Below are positions 46,331 to 57,771 of a DNA stretch of 64,000 nucleotides, piece by piece. The DNA comes from an uncultured Gemmatimonadales bacterium (GTDB lineage: Bacteria > Gemmatimonadota > Gemmatimonadetes > Longimicrobiales > RSA9). The position numbers and the translations under genes were made by a program. Below the pieces are notes generated by a model. That model did no database searches and was not told the origin of the DNA. It saw nothing but the letters and a program-made list of their open reading frames with translations. The stretch covers positions 800,001-864,000 of the forward strand of contig CAVUKA010000001.1 in assembly GCA_963741945.1 (NCBI GenBank), in the 5' to 3' direction. The stretch's first letter is position 1, and every line of letters begins with the position of its first letter.

Positions 46331-46358
46331 TTGGCCGCCGCCAGAAGCGGATTTGAGA

Positions 46359-46458
46359 CGACGTTTCCAGGTTGGCGACCCGCCACGCCGGGACCTTCAG
46401 CGCGAGACCACCTTCGAACCTGCACTTCCGTCACCAGCTCCAACACGGCCGCGGCGGG
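46359..46458 (-). repeat. Truncated attC-like site (TAAC lost; side arm and second R box missing)
   Basis: ACGTTTCCAGGTTGGCGACCCGCC...CACCTTCGAA...CACCAGCTCCAACACGGCCGCGGCGGG closely matches the copy at 50239. Confidence 0.75.
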
Positions 46459-46762
46459 CCTTTCGACCGCCCCGACTATCACCTTGACTCTGTGGTCGGC
46501 AATGGCAGCTGCCCCATCATCGACGCGAGTGTCTCGGCAACGGCCGCGGGGCTCCTCCTTGCCAGCGGTAGTTCAGCAACCCTGCCCCATTCTGGAGGGT
46601 TCCGAACGGCCAGAACCCACTCTGCATCCCGGGTTCAGCCCCTTTGATACAATGGAGGGGGAAGCCCCTGTTTGTTCTCCGACGTGCGTCGCCTTGTTTC
46701 CCTGATCACTGCCAGCGCTCCCCTCACCCTCTCCGCCAACGAGGGGGCCGCATGCATGGACC

Positions 46763-48182: not shown

Positions 48183-48229
48183 GGCTAACATTCCCAGGTT
48201 GGCGACCCGCCGCGCCCAAGCATCCAGCG
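48183..48229 (-). repeat. Half of an attC-like site, fused to the IS110 remnant
   Basis: GGCTAACATTCCCAGGTTGGCGACCCGCCGCGCC...TCCAGCG; similarity stops a few nt before the transposase ATG. Confidence 0.8.
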
Positions 48230-49310
48230 GCGCACCATGCTGCACACGGGGATCGATCTGCATAAGCGCACCTGCGTTCTGGCCACGGTGGACGCCGACG
48301 GCGAAGTCGTGGCCGAAGCGGAGCTCCGAACCCGTCGGGCGGCCATCGCCCGCTACTTCGCGCAGCTCCCGCCGCACCGAGCCACAGTCGAAGCCACCAG
48401 CAGCTGGTACTGGATCCGGGACCTGCTGGAGGCCCACATGATCTCCGCTGAGCTCCGACCGCTCCGCGACGTGATGCGGACCCGGCTCCGCCTGATCCAG
48501 AAAGAGGTCGGGACTCGAAACAGCATTCACCGGCTCCCCGAGAAGCACAACGTTCGCAGTGTCGCGGACCTGCCGCCCATGGCCCAGCTCCAGGCCGCCT
48601 GCCACCGCGAGCAGAGGGAGCTTCTCCGGGAGCACGTCCGCCGACTCGAGAAGAGCCTCCACCCGCACCTGGTGCCTGACCCCGATGTCCAGCGGCTGCT
48701 TGCGATCCCCGGGATCGGCAAGGTCGGCGCCTGGAGGCAAGGACCGGCACCGGCACTCCAGGGACGGCAACAAATACCTGAAGATCGTCTTCTCGAACGC
48801 CGCGGTCCGCGCGATCCAGTACAACCCCGAGATCCGGAGCTGGTACGAACGGAAGGCGCGGAAAAAGAACCGGGCTGTGGCCGGGCTCTCGTCGCGAAGG
48901 AACTCGCTCGTATCGTCTACCATGTCCTCTCGAAGCGGGAGGACTTCAACCATCGCTTCAAAGGCATCCCGCTCCAGCGGCGGAAAAAGCAGGAGTGGCC
49001 ACGTCGGTCAAGCCCGGGCAGCTAACTGGATCGGCTTTCGCCGAGTACCGCCCCGTTTGATTGGGAAGACCGACGTCGAGCCGCCGGACGTATCTGGGAC
49101 CGCTCCGCAGAGCGACCGCTGAAATGAGCAGCGGTGAGCCCGAAATGGTGTTTGGACGCCACTCCACGTCCGATTCGATACCCACTCCGGCCCGGCCAGA
49201 CCTGCCGTCGCTCGCGGAATCGAGAAGCGTCGCACGATCGAAAAGCGAATCAGAATCTCTGATTCCGCAGAGGATCATCGTGCTCCTTGACGAAGGACTT
49301 GTTAATGGTG
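48230..49310 (+). mobile_element. IS110/IS1111-type element remnant with ~285-bp 3' non-coding end
   Basis: Transposase remnant; structured 3' end; outward TTGACG at 49287-49292; junction at 49309-49310 abuts a degenerate R box (TGTCAGGCGG). Confidence 0.65.
48237..49025 (+). pseudogene. IS110-family transposase with internal deletions and frameshifts
   Basis: GIDLHK (DEDD N-terminus), VEAT..WYW, L..IPGIG; GNKYLK..F..AA..A in another frame; A.VA.ELARI.YH.L. Confidence 0.88.
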
Positions 49311-49411: not shown

Positions 49412-49630
49412 ATGACCGAACTACTCAAGAAGGCTTTCGACGAAGCGTCCAAACTCCCCAGCGAGCAGCAGGACGCCATCGCCGCTCTACTCCTGGAGGA
49501 GCTCGAGTCCGATCGAAACTGGGATCGGACCTTTGAAAACTCCCAGGACGACTTGGCGAAGCTCGCGAACGAAGCCCTCGCCGAAGACGCACGAGGTGAG
49601 ACGGAAAACCTCGACCCGTCCAAGCTTTGA
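49412..49630 (+). CDS. Type II antitoxin (72 aa, acidic)
   Basis: MT.LL.KAF.EA.KLP...QD.IA..LLEEL...W...F motif; overlaps the toxin start. Confidence 0.8.
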   Translation: MTELLKKAFDEASKLPSEQQDAIAALLLEELESDRNWDRTFENSQDDLAKLANEALAEDARGETENLDPSKL

Positions 49631-49896
49631 CCTCCCGCACCACTTCATCTTTTCGGAAGGCCTATTCCTCACTTCCTACCGACGTCCAGGAGCGGGCTCG
49701 CGAGGCCTTCGACCTCTTCTCCGCCAATCCGGCTCATCCGAGCCTGCAGTTCAAGCAGGTTCACGCGACCGAGCCGATCTTCTCAGCCCGCATATCGCTC
49801 CACTACAGAGCCTTGGCCCGCCGCGCCGACGATGACTGGATCTGGTTCTGGATCGGCTCACACGCCGACTATGACCAACTCTTGAAGCGCCTGTAG
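49627..49896 (+). CDS. RelE/ParE-superfamily toxin
   Basis: F.K.Y..LP..VQ..AR.AF.LF..NP.HPSL.FK, S.RI...YRAL, WFWIGSHADYD. Confidence 0.85.
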   Translation: MTSRTTSSFRKAYSSLPTDVQERAREAFDLFSANPAHPSLQFKQVHATEPIFSARISLHYRALARRADDDWIWFWIGSHADYDQLLKRL

Positions 49897-49912: not shown

Positions 49913-50065
49913 GCATAACGTTTCCAGGCTACCGACCCGGCCCACCATGAACTGCAGGGCCGCGGCGAGTTTCGAATCCACACGCGCCCACCGAACGGCG
50001 CAACATTGCGGGCCGGGTACTCCGCAGCGACCGAAGGGAGCGGAGGCGCTAGCCGTCTGTTATCC
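49913..50065 (-). repeat. attC-like site 6 (153 bp)
   Basis: + strand GCATAAC-GTTTCCA-GGCTACCG-ACCCGGCCC...GGGCCGGGT-[28 nt]-CGCTAGCC-GTCT-GTTATCC. Confidence 0.9.
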
Positions 50066-50238
50066 GCTGCGCCTCCATCAGCCGCCTCTCCGTCCGCGTG
50101 TTCGCGTGCCCGGCGAAGCAGTTCCGAGTGTCGAAAGAACTGCCGGACCCGAGGTGGCTCGCCTCGGCGGGGCCCGCCTGCTCGAGAACGTGATCAAAAT
50201 CAAATTGATTTCGCTGTCTCCGTCTTGGAGGCGCTTGC
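50066..50238. other. Cassette without a convincing ORF (~175 bp)
   Basis: Lies between two att sites; has its own terminal inverted repeat; contains hairpins and an AT-rich palindrome. Confidence 0.7.
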
Positions 50239-50389
50239 GGCTAACGTCTCCAGGTTGGCGACCCGCCGCGCCGATACCTCTAGCACGCGATCACCTTCGA
50301 AACAGCGGCAGCCTCACCAGCTTCAACACGGTCGCGGCGGGTTCTCCGGAGCGGCCGCAGGCCGCGCAGGCGCCAACCGTTTGTTAACC
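50239..50389 (-). repeat. attC-like site 5 (151 bp)
   Basis: GGCTAAC-GTCTCCA-GGTTGGCG-ACCCGCCGC...GCGGCGGGT-[28 nt]-CGCCAACC-GTTT-GTTAACC. Confidence 0.9.
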
Positions 50390-50418
50390 GCCGTGTTCTG
50401 CCCACAGCCTGGCGGACG

Positions 50419-50715
50419 TCACCTCCGGGCCTGCCAACGCTTCGGATCGCGGCGGGAATGGAAAACGGAGAGTACCACGATCTCTTCCGCGCTCACTCTG
50501 AAGAGAATGGCATATGGGAATCGCCGAACAACGGCCCTCCGGACATCCCGATACAGAATGGGAAATCGGAGAGGATTCCGCTGGATCGCTGAGAAAGCCG
50601 CATCGATGACGCGGACGAATTCCGCTCCCAAGCCCAAGGAACGCTCCGAATACCACGCTGCGGCTTCCTCGAGTTCGGCGTCGGCCGCAGGGCGAACAAC
50701 GAAGCGGCGGCTCAC
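50419..50715 (-). CDS. RelE/ParE family toxin
   Basis: P.A.AELEEA..WY....GLG.EF, RR..V.RFPY.I.F, V..VFH.RR.P..W. Confidence 0.9.
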   Translation of the reverse strand: MSRRFVVRPAADAELEEAAAWYSERSLGLGAEFVRVIDAAFSAIQRNPLRFPILYRDVRRAVVRRFPYAILFRVSAEEIVVLSVFHSRRDPKRWQARR

Positions 50716-50936
50716 CCGTACTTCTTGTACAACCGCTCCCGGACTTCCTCCCAGGGAATAGCAGAATCCGGGTCCGCTTCATGTTCTGCCAGCCTACGGT
50801 CCAGTTCCGCCTTCTGGGCCTCAGTTAATGGATAGGCGTCCGCGTCCGTAGCGATGCTGTCCCACAGGTCCTCCACCAACTGAATCCGCTCAGCGACCGA
50901 CAGCTTGAGCAGTTCCTCGATTGGTACACTCGACAT
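50712..50936 (-). CDS. Addiction-module antitoxin (TIGR02574-like)
   Basis: LS..ERIQLVEDLWDSI...LT..QK.ELDRRL......P...IPWEEV; AAGGAG RBS. Confidence 0.9.
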   Translation of the reverse strand: MSSVPIEELLKLSVAERIQLVEDLWDSIATDADAYPLTEAQKAELDRRLAEHEADPDSAIPWEEVRERLYKKYG

Positions 50937-51002
50937 CCGCAAGCTCCTTCCCTGAAGTCCCTTGCTCCTAATCTGCTACAGAAACGCCGAGTGGAACATG
51001 GG

Positions 51003-51153
51003 GGTTAACGTTTCCAGGTTGGCGACCCGCCGCGCCACAGCCTCCAGCGCTCGAACGCCTTCGAAACAACAACAATCTCACCAGCTTCATCACGGCTGCG
51101 GCGGGTTCTCCGGAGCTCGCGCAGCGAGCGGAGGCGCCAACCGTTTGTTATCC
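51003..51153 (-). repeat. attC-like site 4 (151 bp)
   Basis: GGTTAAC-GTTTCCA-GGTTGGCG-ACCCGCCGC...GCGGCGGGT-[51107-51134]-CGCCAACC-GTTT-GTTATCC. Confidence 0.92.
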
Positions 51154-51700
51154 GAAGCCCCACGGCGATGACCCCTCTTCAAGGCGCCCCGACTAGGCGC
51201 ATGAAAGGACGGAAAGCCGATTGCACCAGACGCCAGTAATACCCAAGGTCATCGGGCGATATCGACCAAGCGATCGTAACGAGTACTCCGATGGCGGTAT
51301 GGACCCAGGTAAACTTGCCTTGGCGCCTGGCTGTTTCTGCAAGGTAGTCTAACCTCCCACTGATGAACTTCTGTTGCTCCTCGCCTAACGAGTAACTTTC
51401 AAACAGTTTGGCCTCAAGTTCTTCAATTGAGTTGCGGATTTCGTCAGCTTCCTCAGCAGAAATCGGAGTGTCCTCAATCTCCTCTCTCGGCGAGAGCGTG
51501 AAGGATTCTTGGTATCTGGCCAGCTCCGTCCAGAGATCGCGGCTTTCCAATTCAAGCTTGAGGCGGTCGGCCCAATTCCAGCACAACTGCTTCTGCCCCT
51601 CCCAAGTTCCATTGTACACTTCTTCGATCCGCTTCTTCTTGTGGGTCCTCTAAACTATGTCGCGGTTTCTCTCTAAACTTTGTCGCGGCAAGGGCGTGAG

Positions 51701-52480
51701 CTAAGCGGCTTCAGAGTCAGGGGCCTCCTCCTGCTTATGGTGGCGGGTGCGGTAGGAGCGGCCGCGGAGCACGAAGTGGGTACCGCGCTCCAGGAGCCGA
51801 TCCAGAATCGCTTCCGCGAGATCGGCATCATGCAGCACCTGACCGAGGGCGGCCAGGGGTTTGTTGGTGGTCACGATCATGGGCCGGTGCTTCAGGTAGC
51901 GATCGTTGACCACCCGGTAGAGTACGTTGGCGGCATCGGCAGCGTAGCTCTGATAACCGAGTTCGTCGATCACCAGCACGTGCGGATGGACGTAGGGCTC
52001 GAGGGCTTCTTCCAGCCGTCCCTCCGCGGCTGCCTTCGAGAGGGCGCCGATCAGCTCGTCTGCGGTGGTGAAGCGGGCGTCGAAGCCGTTCTGGATGGCC
52101 CGATAGGCGATGGCCACGCCCATATGCGTCTTTCCCCGACCGGGCGGCCCCGTGAAGATCGCGGACCGCCCCTCGCTCACGAGCTCCGGCCCCAGCAGCG
52201 TGCCGAGCATCTGAAGGCGGACGCTGGTCTGGAAGGTGAAGTCGAATTCCTCGATGGTGCGGAGGAAGGGAAACTTCGCTTTGCGGACGTATCGGGTGAT
52301 CCGAGTCTGCGCCCGGTGGGCGATCTCCTCGGCGCAGAGTAGCTCGAGAAACGTGCGGTAGCTCATGCCCTCGTCCTCGGCCCGGATCACCAGGTCCGGA
52401 TAGAGGCGTCGGACCGTGGGCAGGTGAAGACGGTGGAGCATCGCATCCAGATCGTCCAGCGGCACGGGAGTGCTGATCAT
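51701..52480 (-). CDS. istB: IS21 helper ATPase IstB
   Basis: GPPGRGKTH Walker A, LVIDELGY Walker B, AILDRLL, G.SYR. Confidence 0.95.
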   Translation of the reverse strand: MISTPVPLDDLDAMLHRLHLPTVRRLYPDLVIRAEDEGMSYRTFLELLCAEEIAHRAQTRITRYVRKAKFPFLRTIEEFDFTFQTSVRLQMLGTLLGPELVSEGRSAIFTGPPGRGKTHMGVAIAYRAIQNGFDARFTTADELIGALSKAAAEGRLEEALEPYVHPHVLVIDELGYQSYAADAANVLYRVVNDRYLKHRPMIVTTNKPLAALGQVLHDADLAEAILDRLLERGTHFVLRGRSYRTRHHKQEEAPDSEAA

Positions 52481-53883
52481 GAGGCCGCCTCCTTCGCCAC
52501 GAGTCCCATCACGTACTCCGCCCCGATCAGGCGCTGAAAGAGCGCTCGCTGGAGCAGCCGGAGGAAACGCTCCTGGCCCACCTCCTCCAGCAGGGCGAAG
52601 AGCCGCTCGACGTCTCCTTTCCAGGTGTAAGGACGAGAGTGGATGAGTTCGGTCAGGTAGCCCTCACCGATGGGCCCCAGCTCCAGGATCCGCTCCCGCA
52701 TGAAGTAGAGGCGCTTCCGGGCGCCGGCCACGGCCGCCAGCTGCTCCGCCCTCTGGCCGGGCAGGTAGCTGGTAGTCCCCACTTTGGGAAAGCGTGGGTG
52801 GGTGGCCTCGAAGCGGGCACCGGTCGTGACGATCCGGACCCGGTCCGGGTACAGGTGCAGCGTGGCCGGAATCCCGCACGCCCCCGCCGGCATAGCGTAG
52901 CGGACTCCCTGGAAATCCACGAGGGCCGTGGGACCCACATGCACGGCGTAGCGCAGCCCGTATTCTGTGGGCGCAATGGCCAGCGGCTTCATGCGGGCCT
53001 GTTCGGTCACGAGCCGGAGCTTTGGGATCTCCTTCGTGGCGCGGGACGGCCGCTCCTCATTCACCCCCAGCAGCCACTCAAGGAGCTGACGGGGGAGGTC
53101 GTGATCGAGATCGGCGAAGCGGCGGGCTCGGAAGAAGCTCCGCTTCACCCAGCCCACAAGATTCTCCACCGAACCCTTCTGCTCGGGACTCCGCACCGCG
53201 CACAGCTCGATGGTGAAGCCGTAGTCGATGGCCACCTGCGCCAGGGTCGAGTTCCAGATCGGCCGGTCGCCGTCCCGGCCCACCACCACGGTCTTCGGAT
53301 TGTCGAAAACTACCCGGAGCGGCACGCCCCCCGAGTGCTCGAAGGCCGCGAGCAGCGCGCGCACCAGCGATTCGATCCGCTCGTCCGGCACGATCACCAC
53401 CCACACCCACCGCGAGTACTTTAGCCGGAAGGCCGCGAAGTGGACCCGCTTCTTCCGCCCGTCCAGCAGCCGGACGTCGGCCTGCCCGAAGTCGAACTGG
53501 GCGAACTCCCCCGCTACCCCCTCGAACCGCACCATCAGCTCCGCCGGCAGCTTCCCCTTCTCCAGCCGAAACACCCGATAGAAGGTGCTCTCGGCGAGCT
53601 GAACTCCTTCGTCACGAAGCAAGCGAAGGTACTCCAGCGGTGGAGCTTCCGGATCCTCCGCGATCAGATCCACCAGCCGCTGCTTCACCGCTGACCTCAC
53701 TGGCGGTCGGCCCACACCACGGCGCCGCCGCTCCGCCACGTCATCCCCGTCCTCTACCAGCGGCTCTTTGGCGATCCGCTGGATCGTCCGCACGGTGACG
53801 CCGAACTGCTCCGCAATCTGCTTCTTCTCTTCCCCCGCCTTCAGCAGAGCATGGACTGCATGTCGATCAATCATCCTGAGCAT
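52477..53883 (-). CDS. istA: IS21 transposase IstA
   Basis: N-terminal HTH; RFE...GE.AQFDFG, GGVP...FDNPK, P.QKG.VE..V. Confidence 0.95.
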   Translation of the reverse strand: MLRMIDRHAVHALLKAGEEKKQIAEQFGVTVRTIQRIAKEPLVEDGDDVAERRRRGVGRPPVRSAVKQRLVDLIAEDPEAPPLEYLRLLRDEGVQLAESTFYRVFRLEKGKLPAELMVRFEGVAGEFAQFDFGQADVRLLDGRKKRVHFAAFRLKYSRWVWVVIVPDERIESLVRALLAAFEHSGGVPLRVVFDNPKTVVVGRDGDRPIWNSTLAQVAIDYGFTIELCAVRSPEQKGSVENLVGWVKRSFFRARRFADLDHDLPRQLLEWLLGVNEERPSRATKEIPKLRLVTEQARMKPLAIAPTEYGLRYAVHVGPTALVDFQGVRYAMPAGACGIPATLHLYPDRVRIVTTGARFEATHPRFPKVGTTSYLPGQRAEQLAAVAGARKRLYFMRERILELGPIGEGYLTELIHSRPYTWKGDVERLFALLEEVGQERFLRLLQRALFQRLIGAEYVMGLVAKEAAS

Positions 53884-54251
53884 CCTCCCCGCCCTCCGAT
53901 TCTCAGAGCCCTGAGCCCTCGGAACGGCGGCATTCTACGCTGTGGATGCCCTCAACTGCGACATAGTTTGGAGAGAATCAGCGACAGAATTTCGGGAACT
54001 CACACTTCTCGCCGGGGCAGAATCGAGCCCAATCTTGGCCCCGGAGGTAGTCAAACTGGAAGTAGAAGTCCGGGTCCGTTTTCAGCACCAAGCGGGACAC
54101 CCTCTGTTCTGAACCGTGGAGACTGGCGACCTCCATCCACTCGAGTCGGGCCGGGTCGAGCCCCGCCCCTTCGACTACCTCGAAAATCTCGTTCTTTCGA
54201 CTAGTTAGAAGAACTTGATTCATCGCACTCCAACGCGTGTGCAGGGGTTTC

Positions 54252-54403
54252 GGATAACGTTTCCAGGTTGGCGACCCGCCGCGCCACAATCTCAAGCGCG
54301 CCACCGCCTCCCAAACTCCGACCTCGTCACTAGCTCCAGTGCGGCCGGCGGCGGGTTCTCCGGAGCGGCCGAAGGCCGCGTAGGCGCCAACCGTTTGTTA
54401 TCT
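54252..54403 (-). repeat. attC-like site 3 (152 bp)
   Basis: GGATAAC-GTTTCCA-GGTTGGCG-ACCCGCCGC...GCGGCGGGT-[28 nt]-CGCCAACC-GTTT-GTTATCT. Confidence 0.92.
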
Positions 54404-54426
54404 GACGTGCGCGCCCTCGAGGGTGA

Positions 54427-54678
54427 CTATGGCGTGGGCACCGAGGAGACATCTTTGTAGAGCGCGTCTGGAGCGAGATCGATATCACCTGGCCAAGTGA
54501 CGGTACCACTCTCCGGATCGACGCTCACCGAATTGAAGACGCTCTGATCCCGCCAAGCCGCGAACACGCCCTTGCCGACGAGTCCCGAAAGGTCCACCTC
54601 CCCTTCAGTGCCATCGGAGAACCGGATCCAAAGCCGGTAGTTCGGCCGCGTCTTCGCCTGCTCGATTCGATACAGCAT
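54427..54678 (-). CDS. DUF2442 family protein (putative antitoxin partner of DUF4160)
   Basis: Y.L...FSDG..G.VDL.....GVF....D...F..V......TV.WP...DLAPD.LY. Confidence 0.85.
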   Translation of the reverse strand: MLYRIEQAKTRPNYRLWIRFSDGTEGEVDLSGLVGKGVFAAWRDQSVFNSVSVDPESGTVTWPGDIDLAPDALYKDVSSVPTP

Positions 54679-54686
54679 TTTCGCCC

Positions 54687-54947
54687 TCAGTTCAGAGGAT
54701 CGATCTTCCCGGGCGCCTCGTGCGCCTGCGCTCGCCTCCACGCCTCCGCCAACTCCCTCTGGTGCAAACTGGCCCATTCCATCACCAGACCCAAGGCTCT
54801 CGGCGGCAAACTCCCTTCCAACACCGACAGATCCTCAATCCTCACCAGAGCTTCCGCTCCGCCGTACCGCGCATGGAAATGCGGCGGCGCGTGGTCGCGG
54901 AAGTACATGTAGATCGAGATGCCGAAGAACTCCGAAACCTTTGGCAA
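54687..54947 (-). CDS. DUF4160 family protein (putative toxin)
   Basis: MP..S.FFGI.IYMY..DH.PPHFHA.Y, G.LP..AL.LV.EWA..H..EL...W. Confidence 0.88.
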   Translation of the reverse strand: MPKVSEFFGISIYMYFRDHAPPHFHARYGGAEALVRIEDLSVLEGSLPPRALGLVMEWASLHQRELAEAWRRAQAHEAPGKIDPLN

Positions 54948-55012
54948 TACACCTCCGCCTCTAACGAGATCTCCGGCATCTTCGAAACTACCGCGAAGCC
55001 GAAGCGCATGTC

Positions 55013-55167
55013 AGATAACGTTTCCAGGTGAGCGACCCCGCTACCACGACCTCACCTGGCGCCGCCTCCTTCGAAACTTCCCGACATCCTTTGAGCAGCG
55101 CCAGCACCTGTCCGCGGGGTACTCCGAAGCGACCGAAGGGAGCGAAGGCGCTCACCGTTTGTTATCT
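55013..55167 (-). repeat. attC-like site 2 (155 bp)
   Basis: AGATAAC-GTTTCCA-GGTGAGCG-ACCCCGC...GCGGGGT-[28 nt]-CGCTCACC-GTTT-GTTATCT. Confidence 0.92.
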
Positions 55168-55574
55168 GAAGCCCCGTTCCCACCCGTCGGATCAGCTCGG
55201 ACCTGCGGGGGCTCACTGGAAAGTGGCTGGTTCACCAGATCCCAAGCCACGTCAATAAACTCCACTTCGAACCAGCGGTTGAACGTCTTCCAGTCCCGTT
55301 TCTTCGGCCATAGCGCCGGATCTGTATACCAGCTGTCGAGAGCGATCTCGAACATCAGATCGAAGTTGTCCCGGATCCAGGCTTCCGAATCCGGCGTCAT
55401 GTCGAACTGCGGGATCAGGAACGCCTCCACGGCCTTCTCCGCGACTTCCTCACTCACCGGCGGTCCCGGTCCCGGGTCCGCCTCCCGCACCCAGTCGACG
55501 AATGGCTGCTTCGGCCGCAGCACGACGAGGCCACGATTCAGGAACCAGATCTCCCCACCGTCAGTTTCAGCCAT
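55152..55574 (-). CDS. Hypothetical cassette protein (NR...V.RPKQPF.DW family)
   Basis: 140-aa ORF filling the cassette; FE..L..W..D...WP..R....F..WF.V.F motif; stop codon lies inside the att site. Confidence 0.75.
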   Translation of the reverse strand: MAETDGGEIWFLNRGLVVLRPKQPFVDWVREADPGPGPPVSEEVAEKAVEAFLIPQFDMTPDSEAWIRDNFDLMFEIALDSWYTDPALWPKKRDWKTFNRWFEVEFIDVAWDLVNQPLSSEPPQVRADPTGGNGASDNKR

Positions 55575-55594
55575 CCGCTTTCCTGAGGGGTTTC

Positions 55595-55744
55595 AGATAA
55601 CGTTCAATGGTTGGCGACCGCCGCGCCGAACCTCCAGCGCTCTTCGATCTCTGAATCCAAGCAGCCCTTCCAGCATCAGCACACGGGCCGCGGCGGTACT
55701 CCGGAGCGAGCAACGCGAGCGCAGGCGCCAACCTAGTGTTATAC
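55595..55744 (-). repeat. attC-like site 1 (150 bp)
   Basis: AGATAAC-GTTCAAT-GGTTGGCG-ACCGCCGC...GCGGCGGT-[28 nt]-CGCCAACC-TAGT-GTTATAC. Confidence 0.92.
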
Positions 55745-55780: not shown

Positions 55781-56392
55781 TCAGCGCTTCCGTTTGAGCG
55801 TGCCCCACGCCGATACGAGCATCAGGTCATGACCAGCCTGGGCGAGGCTGAACTCTTCGGGATCGAATCCGTCTCCGAGCCATTCGATCTTCTCCCGCAC
55901 CCACTCTTCGAGCTCACCGATTGGAGTCCCGAGTGCTGCTAGCATTTCGGTATAGGCGTGGGGTCCACCGCAATCCTCTGGAGGGCCCCGACGAGCCCCC
56001 GCGACGACCATGGGCAGCCAGTCGAGGTCCGGATTGCCCTCCGGCTCCTCGATTTCTACAACGTGCCGCCACTCATCTCCCCAGTCGTACACGTACTCCA
56101 GCCGATCACCAGGGCCGAGGCCCAACCGGTCGAGACGCGCCTTGGTCGAATCCAAGCCCTCGGCCTCGTCATCCGGTGCCTCGTAGTGTTCCTCACCGAC
56201 CTGGAAGCTGTAGAGATGGTAGTCGTACCAGTCGAACAACAACTGGATGATTCGATGCAATTCGTGCAGGGTCGTCCGTTTCGGGAGCAGTACACGCCGC
56301 CAGATCCGGGGCTCGATGTCCTCGAGATAGATCTGCACCTGAAAATGGTCGTGGTCTGTCTTCACACGATCCGCCCGACGTGGCTGAATCAA
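55781..56392 (-). CDS. Plasmid pRiA4b ORF-3 family protein (first cassette)
   Basis: P.IWRR..LP...TL.ELH.IIQ..F.W...HL..F, Y.YD.GD.W.H.V..E, G.R..PPEDCGG; alternative start GTG at 56365. Confidence 0.9.
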   Translation of the reverse strand: MIQPRRADRVKTDHDHFQVQIYLEDIEPRIWRRVLLPKRTTLHELHRIIQLLFDWYDYHLYSFQVGEEHYEAPDDEAEGLDSTKARLDRLGLGPGDRLEYVYDWGDEWRHVVEIEEPEGNPDLDWLPMVVAGARRGPPEDCGGPHAYTEMLAALGTPIGELEEWVREKIEWLGDGFDPEEFSLAQAGHDLMLVSAWGTLKRKR

Positions 56393-56425: not shown

Positions 56426-56454
56426 TGCGTATAACTACTGCGTTATACTGCGTT
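56426..56454 (-). other. attI-like primary recombination site
   Basis: GTATAAC-TACTGC-GTTATAC perfect 7-6-7 inverted repeat (56429-56448); no att hairpin; TGCGTATAAC matches the far end of cassette 1. Confidence 0.75.
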
Positions 56455-56456
56455 CC

Positions 56457-56470
56457 CGAACTCGTGTTCG
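56457..56470. promoter_or_regulatory. CGAAC-N4-GTTCG palindrome (matches the Gram-positive-type LexA box; could instead be an accessory recombinase site)
   Basis: CGAACTCGTGTTCG, 8 bp from the attI-like site. Confidence 0.4.
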
Positions 56471-56670
56471 GTAGGATGTCGGCGGGCCGGATGTTTGCGC
56501 CGGTCGTTCGGGAAAGGTCCTTATCAGTTGTCGGAGCCACCCACCCCGGCCGCCTGACCCGAATCATCTCTATTTGGGGCCATTCTTGTTCAGAAGCAAT
56601 GACCTTGTACAGGGGCTCCGCACGGCCGTTTGCACGGGGCTGATTCGAGCGGCCGACGGCCGCTTCCCCC

Positions 56671-57771
56671 TCACGCTGCGTCCAGCGGGTTCACGATCCG
56701 GGTCAGGTCGCCGCGGCTGACGTGGGTATAGATCTGGGTGGTGCGGGGGCTCGTGTGGCCGAGGAGCTCCTGGATGTGGCGGAGGTTGACGCCGGCCTCC
56801 AGGAGGTGGGTGGCGAAGCTGTGGCGGAGGGTGTGCACGGTGGCGTGCTTGCGTACGCCGGACCGGGCCAGGGCGCGCTCGAAGATCTTCTGCACGGACC
56901 GCGTGGTCAGATGGCGGCCGGGCCGGCCCCCGGGGAAGATCCAGTCGTCGGCGTGGAGGCGGGCAACGACGGGCTCGAGGGCGGCGGCCGCGGCATCGGC
57001 CAGCAGCGTGTAGCGGTCCTTCCTCCCCTTCCCTGCGCGGACACGGACCAGCCCTCGTCCGGAATCCACGTCGCCGACCCTGAGGCGTACCACCTCGCTG
57101 ACGCGGAGGCCGGCGGAGTACGCCAGTATCAGGGCCAGACGGTGCGTCGGGTTGGCGGGGGCGTCGAGGATGCGGCGCACTTCGTCGCGGGAGAGGACGG
57201 CGGGGAGCTGGCGCTCCCGCTTCGGGCGGCGGATCGGGTCCAGCGCGAGCGGGCGGCCGACGAGCCGCGCCAGGAGCCGGATGGCGCTGATCGCCTGGTG
57301 CTGGTAGGAGGTCGACCGGTCGTCGGCCTCGAGCCGGAGCAGGTGAGCGCGGACGTGCTCCGTCGACAGCTCGGTCGCGGCCTTCGGGAAAGCTTCGAAG
57401 AACCGACGGACGTGGCCGACGTAGTTCGTCCGCGTACGGGGGCCGTAGCCCTGGAGCCGGAGCTCTTCCGAGAGGCGCTGGAGGAGCGCCGCCGCCGGAT
57501 CGGTGCCGTTCGCCCGGCGAAACGGGACGCGGACCAGGTGCATGAGACCGGGGTCGACGCGGAAGCTCGCGTCGGGCGCCCGGAGCAGCGCGTTCAGCGC
57601 CTCCTCGGTGCGCGGCAGCAGCCACGCCGATCGGCCGGGGTCCCAGTGCCGGCCTGGGATCGAGCGGACGTGCCCGACCAGCCCCGCGTCATAGGGGAAC
57701 CGGACTTCGATCCGCGTTTCCGCGTCCATGAGCCAAACAGAGGTCGCCATGACCGAGTCTGAACCGGCCAC
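56671..57771 (-). CDS. Integron-integrase-like tyrosine recombinase lacking the IntI insertion, with an extra N-terminal HARP-like domain
   Basis: Intact catalytic residues: GLRVSE, GKGRKDR, HTLRHSFATHLL, LLGH, TQIYTHV; SAM-like core-binding domain (LRLQGYGPRT..NY, STSYQHQA.SAI); start may be 57729-57771. Confidence 0.9.
   Translation of the reverse strand: MAGSDSVMATSVWLMDAETRIEVRFPYDAGLVGHVRSIPGRHWDPGRSAWLLPRTEEALNALLRAPDASFRVDPGLMHLVRVPFRRANGTDPAAALLQRLSEELRLQGYGPRTRTNYVGHVRRFFEAFPKAATELSTEHVRAHLLRLEADDRSTSYQHQAISAIRLLARLVGRPLALDPIRRPKRERQLPAVLSRDEVRRILDAPANPTHRLALILAYSAGLRVSEVVRLRVGDVDSGRGLVRVRAGKGRKDRYTLLADAAAAALEPVVARLHADDWIFPGGRPGRHLTTRSVQKIFERALARSGVRKHATVHTLRHSFATHLLEAGVNLRHIQELLGHTSPRTTQIYTHVSRGDLTRIVNPLDAA

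Follow-up and report, generated by a model that had tools for sequence, protein, structure and literature searches.

The window analyzed here, 64,000 nucleotides (nt) from an uncultured Gemmatimonadales bacterium (C1:800001-864000 of a 4.09 Mb genome in 8 contigs), contains an array of gene cassettes that are separated by long inverted repeats and headed by a gene for a tyrosine recombinase, P0001. The array is ~10 kb long, running from a candidate attI near 56432 to about 46300. Most cassette open reading frames (ORFs) are on the minus strand, so the site-bearing plus strand is the bottom strand relative to most cassettes. Here, we describe the repeats, the recombinase, and their relatives. 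We propose that the repeats are attC-type recombination sites of a sedentary, integron-like cassette array served by the co-oriented recombinase, and that a hairpin arm on the side of the folded site serves as the signal provided by single extrahelical bases in canonical integrons; we hold these two proposals jointly, with somewhat better than even confidence. The recombinase gene, the candidate attI, and the sites are arranged as follows:

56671-57771, minus strand: tyrosine recombinase P0001, 366 amino acids (aa), co-oriented with the cassettes, 3′ end facing the array
56428-56475, plus strand: candidate attI, with a TAAC core at 56432-56435, then TACTGCGTT twice and a small inverted repeat
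55598-55741, plus strand: attC-type site 6, 144 nt; arm 55698-55725, with an AAC arm loop
55016-55164, plus strand: attC-type site 5, 149 nt; arm 55121-55148; L stem GGTGAGCG/CGCTCACC, with two compensated changes
54255-54400, plus strand: attC-type site 4, 146 nt; arm 54357-54384
51006-51150, plus strand: attC-type site 3, 145 nt; arm 51107-51134
50242-50386, plus strand: attC-type site 2, 145 nt; arm 50343-50370; the second array of the genome has another copy of its cassette (50242-51010)
49916-50062, plus strand: attC-type site 1, 147 nt; arm 50019-50046; L stem with one C.C mismatch
48186-48236, plus strand: attC-type site truncated by an insertion, keeping its 5′ half (TAAC, L stem, second stem)
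46355-46485, plus strand: decayed terminal attC-type site, in which CGAC replaces TAAC and the arm, L′, and GTTA are lost; 55.6 bits in the covariance model described below

The six complete sites all parse to a single plan: TAAC, 7 nt, an 8-base-pair (bp) L stem, a 7-10-bp second stem, a variable part, the second strand of the second stem, 28 nt, the second strand of the L stem (L′), 4 nt, and GTTA. The second stem starts gaplessly after the L stem, and the variable part spans 62-72 nt. An 18-nt motif at the 3′ end occurs six times, vs. 0.02 occurrences expected from shuffled sequence. The 28-nt insert is itself a hairpin, which we refer to as the “arm”; its loop is C-GAA-G or C-GCA-G in five of the six copies and C-AAC-G in copy 6, and tandem G.A/A.G mismatches are found in the arms of copies 1, 5, and 6. 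A first-pass annotation, made from the letters of the sequence alone, had already taken the repeats to be att sites, a reading supported here in the form of attC-type sites of a cassette array, with the plus strand as the bottom strand for most cassette ORFs. It had also described the shared architecture (with a second stem of 7-9 bp), the arm hairpin with its C-GAA-G or C-GCA-G cap in five of six copies, and the tandem GA mismatches in three, all of which we confirm; the stem variants that it quoted are correct, save for a single C.C mismatch in the L stem of copy 1 (GGCTACCG/CGCTAGCC). Its count of six is right for full copies but misses two more, the half site at 48186-48236 and the decayed copy at 46355-46485, the latter of which is not readable by our site parser. 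A search of the whole window against Rfam at gathering thresholds returned no match. In most copies of this array and of the second one, two sequence blocks, which resemble CCTTCGAAAC and CTCACCAGC, respectively, recur within the “variable” region (e.g., 51056-51090).

Sites of the same design are found in related bacteria. We sampled 401 genomes of the phylum, and homologues of P0001 at E <= 1e-50 were found in 28 of them, mostly from the same order. A covariance model (R1) was built from 11 sites and used to search 30 sources with a hit cut-off of E <= 0.01. This yielded 96 hits in nine sources, i.e., the window, a second array in the same genome, and loci of seven other genomes, for a total of eight genomes. 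Ninety of the 96 hits parse to the common plan, with a few probably mis-registered at the 3′ core. The sites are imperfect palindromes with an asymmetric unpaired spacer and an L stem of 8-9 bp on which the second stem is directly stacked. In all eight loci that bear a recombinase, the hits share one strand, the one opposite to that of the gene, and follow downstream of the gene’s 3′ end. Two hallmarks of integrons are found in these loci: a tyrosine recombinase beside the array (adjacent in 8/8 loci; Phage_integrase E 1e-43, plus a SAM-like domain), and inverted AAC...GTT cores with an L box and an unpaired central spacer (6/6 window sites, and the parsed hits). The model detected no arm-type site beside the P0001 homologues in loci L126-L129, L010-L012, L015, and L131; L129, L010, and L011 end close to the recombinase gene.

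The arm sets these sites apart from canonical attC sites. All 78 distinct sites have it, while their apices span 3-83 nt; it is kept even in short sites of ~95 nt that have an apex loop of only 3-5 nt. Arm lengths, with the number of sites in parentheses, are 15 (1), 23 (2), 25 (1), 26 (2), 27 (13), 28 (24), 29 (8), 30 (5), 31 (4), 32 (4), 33 (1), 34 (8), 35 (1), 36 (3), and 40 nt (1). The first-pass annotation called the arm an invariant 28 nt, which is true of the six window copies but not of the wider set, where lengths range from 15 to 40 nt across eight genomes and 28 nt is found in 24 sites. It had named variable arm length in homologous sites as grounds for giving up its model, and such variation is what we found. 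The arm loop is C-GNA-G in 33 of the 78 sites, and there is conserved sequence at the arm base (..CCGNAGC...GCGNAGG). Counted from R′′, positions 12-19 make up the L box, which is paired throughout, and position 20 is the first of the arm. In parsed sites, neither the L stem nor the second stem has a single-base bulge. Extrahelical bases are defined, in the accessible text of the study that describes them, as single bases on the R′′-L′′ arm of the site (PMC2727003); the two or three such bases of canonical integron sites are missing here, and the 15-40-nt arm is in their place. On the strand that is antisense to most cassettes, the arm interrupts the 3′ half alone; this is the R′′-L′′ half, which bears the extrahelical bases in canonical sites.

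Covariation of the stems, claimed in the first-pass annotation, is supported far above controls across a 96-row alignment, which was fitted to the covariance model and includes many sites that are close kin. Standard pairs occupy 92.6% of 2801 cells, vs. 71.8% in shuffles, and the covariation score is 0.45, vs. 0.12 in shuffles, with 0/500 shuffles reaching the observed value; slid partners score no higher than 0.036. Changes on both sides are seen at 25 of 30 pairs, including 8/8 in the L stem, 8/9 in the second stem, and 5/5 in the inner arm. The R-box and L pairs are paired in 97.9% and 97.6% of cases, respectively. An N-N′ pair (N7-N25) inside the GNA/GNA loop, which the annotation had implied, is paired in only 31% of cells, and we dropped it as a conserved arm pair.

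Several observations bear on which strand folds. Mismatch types were counted with neutral scoring on the 78 distinct sites: G.T outnumbers A.C (76 vs. 19), and G.A outnumbers C.T (59 vs. 17), with the arms alone having 56 G.A and no C.T. A reverse-complement control mirrors these counts. Since G.T exceeds A.C and G.A exceeds C.T, the tolerated mismatches would be those that are benign on the window’s plus strand, and the asymmetry points to folding of this, the bottom, strand. A crude test based on GC content at third codon positions (GC3) placed the best cassette ORF opposite the arm strand in 46 cases and on the arm strand in 17, with none found in 19, which agrees with the arm strand being the bottom strand. 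Minimum-energy folding of the plus strand with DNA parameters predicts a three-way junction in five of the six copies. Sheared tandem G.A pairs and C-GNA-G loops are highly stable in DNA.

The recombinase is also unusual. P0001 has a HARP-like N-terminal domain (~residues 10-80; “N-domain”), a SAM-like core-binding domain, and a catalytic domain, and its catalytic residues (R223, K248, H313, R316, H339, and Y348) are in invariant columns of a 20-row alignment. The best NCBIfam match is the integron integrase family TIGR02249, at 208.4 bits vs. a cut-off of 265, in two pieces that skip profile positions ~180-234. When P0001 is compared with VchIntIA (2a3v), its residues 264-286 span chain residues 176-240, with about 42 residues missing; P0001 aligns gaplessly to XerA (4a8e). 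The NCBIfam cut-offs for Xer proteins are likewise unreached (XerA_Arch, 199.6 vs. 220; XerC, 180 vs. 335; XerD, 169 vs. 330). In the 20-row alignment, the I2 insertion is found in 3/3 true IntI proteins and is missing from P0001 and from 13/13 N-domain relatives; P0001 thus lacks the IntI-specific I2 helix. All 14 of the I2-less proteins have a 78-117-residue N-terminal extension with a ..PGRxW..(4-5)..W..P motif. According to the accessible part of a published account, the extrahelical bases are what I2 “recognizes and docks”; I2 also hinders the second strand exchange, and it is missing from Xer proteins (PMC7790495).

We built a quick maximum-likelihood tree of 45 recombinases (279 columns, midpoint-rooted only). 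P0001 groups with IntI, apart from the Xer rows. Twelve Gemmatimonadota/Firmicutes N-domain rows form one group with the 8-row IntI clade, with a Shimodaira-Hasegawa-like approximate likelihood ratio test (SH-aLRT) value of 99; the Bacteroidota N-domain rows are just outside this group, and the XerC/D-like and archaeal XerA-like rows are on the other side. On this tree, the HARP-type recombinase clade is sister to IntI (SH-aLRT 99). Because the Bacteroidota N-domain enzymes branch just outside the group of IntI and the Gemmatimonadota proteins, the combination of arm and HARP-like domain may be close to the ancestral state that preceded classical integrons.

The assignment of the N-domain draws on structure and on profile searches. 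A structure model from 14 sequences (predicted local distance difference test score of 84) has the order beta-beta-alpha-beta-beta-alpha-beta-alpha. The best Foldseek match is the HARP substrate-recognition domain of SMARCAL1 (4o66; probability 0.95, E 0.036), with the archaeal XPB N-terminal domain next. A VIA search, which is independent of Foldseek, gave Z scores of 6.9 for the T4 UvsW N-domain (root-mean-square deviation 1.9 over 60 residues), 5.5 for XPB, and 3.8 for HARP. Pfam searches with full-length P0001 gave no N-domain match at E 0.01; the Pfam HARP family weakly matches six of the 14 N-domains (E up to 10), with a best E of 6.7e-4. A profile of the N-domain retrieved 3570 representatives at E <= 1e-3 and 470 at E <= 1e-10. 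Eight of its top hits were scanned; these include four recombinases with 3-4 tandem copies of the domain and two SNF2 helicases, and four of the eight (P0125, P0128, P0164, and P0214) pass the HARP cut-off. By virtue of its fold similarity and these transitive profile links to proteins that pass the HARP cut-off, the N-domain of P0001 reads as HARP-like. HARP-type domains bind forked or branched DNA. Our literature searches, for which most subscription journals and supplements were beyond reach, returned no account of a HARP-like domain on a recombinase and no description of a lateral arm in attC sites.

Cassettes in these arrays appear to be mobile. The second array in the same genome (C1:350600-358115, i.e., L009 6582-14115) has seven arm-type sites, two of them with 30-nt arms, and none of the genome’s eight P0001-like matches is near it. 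It is therefore a cluster of attC sites lacking an integron integrase (CALIN), i.e., at least two attC sites with no integrase nearby. Positions 50242-51010 of the window correspond to L009 9398-10166: the two 769-nt units differ by two mismatches, and their flanks are unrelated. The identity opens at TAAC and closes after TAACG. Because a near-identical unit is bounded at TAAC/TAACG and set in unrelated flanks, a cassette has moved between the two arrays, and on this comparison the shared unit is the footprint of site-specific recombination at the core. Mobility of cassettes bounded at the AAC/GTT core, another hallmark of integrons, is thus represented by the shared cassette. At the head of the window’s array, the TAAC junction at 56432-56435 is the candidate attI; its junction sequence is common to the locus of the closest relative, G167, the one relative in which it was seen.

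A canonical integron in the same order provides an internal control. We searched six genomes, i.e., that of the window and those of five relatives with arm-type arrays, with TIGR02249. One relative, G356, encodes a full canonical IntI (411 bits) that has the I2 region and no HARP-like N-terminus. The integron to which it belongs is covered by L132 1708-18458 and L136 888-2015. Behind this gene are at least 15 co-oriented sites of ~104 nt, which have single unpaired 3′-arm bases at positions 16, 21, and 24 from R′′ by our count and no lateral arm. These positions are close to those of the extrahelical bases of VCR2/1 (G16, T20, and T24), as given in the accessible text of PMC2727003. The G356 canonical sites also have an apical GC-rich hairpin. 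R1 does not match these 104-nt sites, and it found no arm-type site beside the canonical intI genes in L132-L135. The HARP-type enzyme of G356, 227 kb from the canonical IntI, heads arm-type sites. Both pairings thus occur in G356, where I2 goes with extrahelical bases and a HARP-like domain goes with the arm. The other four relatives with arm-type arrays have no TIGR02249 match over the cut-off. Two canonical intI copies that include the I2 region are found in the window’s genome (C1:1401601-1402308 and C6:4028-4729, in L004 and L005), scoring 328 and 323 bits over profile positions 80-315 only; they are near-identical and 5′-truncated, and R1 found no arm-type sites beside them (L134 and L135). 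Both truncated copies abut an istB gene of the IS21 family of insertion sequences (IS).

Based on these observations, we propose the following mechanism. The bottom (plus) strand would fold into a three-way junction, with the arm close to the place that the second extrahelical base takes in canonical sites (by our count, position 20 from R′′). The arm and the 7x4 spacer would mark the recombinogenic strand and position the enzyme, and the HARP-like domain would read the junction or the arm, standing in for the reading of extrahelical bases by I2. The bottom strand would be cut at AA|C, the position used in integrons. That the arm and asymmetric spacer take over the role of the extrahelical bases, with the HARP-like domain as the likely reader, is the best-supported reading of the data, and we consider it moderately probable. 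The first-pass annotation had put forward the replacement of the extrahelical bases by the arm and internal loop; the HARP-like reader is our addition. The conservation of the arm on the R′′-L′′ half, the stems without bulges, and the missing I2 all fit this idea; its other part, that the arm acts in recognition and as the strand signal, is something we infer. A broader statement, that an I2-less lineage sister to IntI represents a second structural solution to integron-type recombination, built on a lateral hairpin, a three-way junction, and a HARP-like reader after the I2 helix and the single extrahelical bases were either lost or never acquired, is tentative, and we place it somewhat short of an even chance.

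A number of observations weigh against this proposal. First, folding energies show no preference for the plus strand: the whole-site mean is −31.1 kcal/mol for the plus strand and −33.9 kcal/mol for the minus strand, on which a mirror junction is predicted too, and the means for the arms only are −6.0 and −5.6 kcal/mol, respectively. Shuffled sequences fold as well as the arms of copies 5 and 6, and the energy model leaves G.A-containing arms unfolded. The strand-specific folding described in the first-pass annotation is thus favored by the mismatch types but not by the energies, since DNA-parameter folding works on both strands; because the energies give the plus strand no advantage, the argument from arm stability depends on the general properties of G.A pairs and GNA loops. 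Second, the window alone has no wobble signal (G.T 0, A.C 2), although an excess of G.A over C.T remains (8 vs. 1), and the covariation counts come from a model-fitted alignment in which many sites are near kin. Third, the best ORF is on the arm strand in 17 of 63 scorable cassettes in the crude GC3 test. Fourth, the HARP link is weak for P0001 itself: its N-domain scores 16.1 bits vs. a gathering cut-off of 25 for Pfam HARP (PF07443), and the VIA scores are all below Z 8, a range that the tool warns is common. Lastly, not every homologue is accompanied by an arm-type array. L127 and L128 hold a recombinase homologue but showed no arm-type array, L127 being without an array, and G364, a relative whose recombinase is without the N-domain, has sites with small cGNAg hairpins on the opposite side. 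Nearest-neighbor energies were rejected as a test of strand specificity, since the plus strand did no better and G.A arms were not folded.

Four other explanations were considered. The strongest of these, which we nonetheless regard as unlikely, is that the arm is a folding aid or a site for a host or accessory protein, e.g., in cruciform extrusion or replication-linked folding, while the recombinase reads the R and L boxes and the asymmetric spacer. The conserved arm-base sequence would suit a sequence-reading factor, the HARP link of P0001 is weak, as noted above, and, in the accessible text of PMC2727003, the canonical spacer alone can impose strand choice without extrahelical bases. However, site type tracks recombinase type within a single genome, G356, and the arm is at the junction of the L and second stems, where an L-box-bound subunit could reach it. 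No conserved accessory gene was noticed beside the arrays, although no systematic search was made.

The sites might instead recombine as double-stranded DNA, by an Xer-like two-step exchange, with palindromy and the arm being by-products or serving another purpose. Such a pathway would suit an enzyme that aligns gaplessly to XerA and is without I2, which is thought to be needed for folded single strands and for blocking the second exchange (PMC7790495, accessible part). Against this, the compensatory changes in three helices and the strand-specific tolerance of G.T and G.A argue for selection on the intrastrand pairing of one strand, and the L and second-stem sequences vary freely among sites, unlike those of a sequence-specific double-stranded site; we find recombination of double-stranded sites improbable. 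We give marginally less weight again to the arm being an inherited piece of variable terminal structure, like the branched apex of the Vibrio repeats, and functionless in itself. The window’s six copies are indeed close kin, and branching at the apex has been described in large attC sites and could be dispensed with in VCR2/1 (PMC2727003, accessible part), but the arm is not apical, it persists in eight genomes in which the apex can be anything from 3 to 83 nt, covariation is seen at 5/5 pairs of its inner stem, and its mismatches are exclusively G.A rather than C.T (56 vs. 0). Least probable is service in trans by a canonical integron integrase elsewhere, with the adjoining recombinase being incidental: two I2-bearing canonical intI genes (328 and 323 bits) are indeed present in the genome, but both are truncated (profile 80-315) and abut istB, four of five relatives with arm-type arrays have no TIGR02249 match over the cut-off, the recombinase-then-array layout is found in 8/8 loci, and the canonical IntI of G356 has its own distinct site family.

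The platform can be compared with several known systems. The closest are sedentary chromosomal integrons, especially those with the co-oriented “inverted integrase” layout. Shared features include a tyrosine recombinase heading mostly single-ORF or toxin-antitoxin cassettes; AAC/GTT cores, an unpaired spacer, an L box, a variable apex, and cassette ends at the AAC core; and a bottom-strand asymmetry on the R′′-L′′ half, which takes the form of extrahelical bases in integrons (PMC2727003, accessible part). The IntI clade is also sister to that of P0001, and a relative, G356, has a co-oriented canonical integron. By contrast, the platform described here has no I2 and no single extrahelical bases, a 15-40-nt arm at the junction of the L and second stems, an added HARP-like N-domain, and a recombinase that does not reach the NCBIfam integron-integrase cut-off. 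In lacking both I2 and single extrahelical bases, it falls short of the definition of an integron on two counts, and yet, as far as its sequence goes, it appears to work like one.

Vibrio cholerae repeats (VCR) share a branched folded site and a GNA-type triplet cap, like the GAA apex of small attC sites (PMC2727003, accessible part); however, the VCR branch is apical, variable, and dispensable, whereas the branch described here is lateral, conserved, one-sided, and persists with a 3-nt apex. The rAID-1 clusters of Bacteroidales are described, in the accessible text, as an XerD-like recombinase followed by co-directional small genes, with repetitive sequences between the genes that are “reminiscent of integrons” (10.1101/471110). 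They are recognized by >44% identity to the B. fragilis rAID-1 recombinase and by co-directional, low-GC genes (10.1101/471110). The likeness extends to the Bacteroidota members of the P0001 N-domain family, which also adjoin repeat arrays; rAID-1 differs in phylum and in site sequences, and its description in the accessible text mentions no site fold, side arm, or HARP-like domain. The N-domain itself has a fold similar to those of the domains of SMARCAL1 (HARP), archaeal XPB, and T4 UvsW, and its profile is linked to proteins that pass the HARP cut-off. Those domains are on helicases; here, the domain is fused to a tyrosine recombinase, and its DNA binding is putative. The accessible text of the IntegronFinder 2 preprint mentions a large attC element array in a Gemmatirosa replicon, and that text has nothing on its structure.

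According to the current view, as stated in the accessible part of PMC7790495, integron integrases need I2, docked on extrahelical bases, for recognition of folded attC sites and for blocking the second exchange. A sister lineage appears to run cassette arrays with neither I2 nor extrahelical bases, the candidate substitute being a lateral arm together with a domain of the type that binds branched DNA. Strand choice and single-strand recognition by other means thereby become testable. Standard integron finders key on the I2 region and the canonical attC plan, so they may miss cassette platforms in Gemmatimonadota and other phyla. The lineage also bears on the origin of integrons from Xer-like enzymes, and a second, orthogonal type of structure-specific site would be of interest to builders of recombination tools.

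Three loci with P0001 homologues hold repeats of other kinds. In L126 (3832-17392; G364), a third site family is located beside a homologue that lacks room for the N-domain (an open frame of 328 aa). These sites are bounded by TAAC...GTTA and have an L stem of 8 bp; their small C-GNA-G mini-hairpins are found on the plus strand’s 5′ side, opposite to that of the arm in the window. In L015 (5395-8000; Psychroserpens sp.), ~140-nt AAC...GTT repeats have long, G.T-rich stems and a C-GCA-G hairpin, and the array is divergent from a recombinase that bears the N-domain and is without I2. In L131 (10083-17909; Chryseobacterium plasmid NZ_CP041688.1), a full-length homologue with 34.7% identity to P0001 is followed by four 282-nt repeats, in each of which AAC precedes and GTT follows a perfect stem of 14 bp. 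The array includes an IS110-family transposase and a group II intron.

The minus-strand ORFs between the repeats are of the sort usually carried by cassettes. The remaining features of the window’s array are as follows:

55781-56392, minus strand: first cassette ORF, PRiA4_ORF3 family (E 4.4e-50)
54427-54947, minus strand: two-ORF cassette, with DUF4160 (54687-54947) and DUF2442 (54427-54777)
51640-53996 (approximate ends), minus strand: IS21-family insertion within a cassette ORF, with istB at 51701-52480 and istA at 52477-53883 (IstB_IS21, E 7.6e-65; rve)
50712-50942, minus strand: antitoxin-like cassette ORF (Unstab_antitox, E 2.8e-22)
48237-49025, plus strand: IS110-like transposase ORF, apparently degraded, inside the cut site (DEDD_Tnp_IS110, E 0.0059, below cut-off)

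The IS110-like ORF starts exactly where the attC-type site that begins at 48186 breaks, after its second stem; the 3′ half of the site cut at 48236 was not found. Some IS110-family elements are known to target attC sites. The IS21-family insertion has terminal repeats that can be read in the sequence, and metagenome contigs part ways at 51639/51640. Metagenome contigs also diverge at site borders and at the arm start. In short unitigs from one metagenome study, the two sides of site-to-site joints are 21-49 letters long at 90% likeness; repeats or other organisms may be their source. For the metagenome run X4, the summed contig depth is 160.6, 44.9, and 68.8 in the site-holding bins 50037-50403, 50771-51137, and 54074-54440, respectively, while most cassette bins are 0-3 deep, with one at 8 (contigs only). 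Because the site bins are far deeper than the cassette bins, these data weakly suggest that the X4 community has many more cassettes with similar sites. Lastly, positions 49413-49896 hold a two-gene cassette on the plus strand, inverted relative to the other cassettes, whose products resemble an antitoxin and a RelE/ParE-like toxin.

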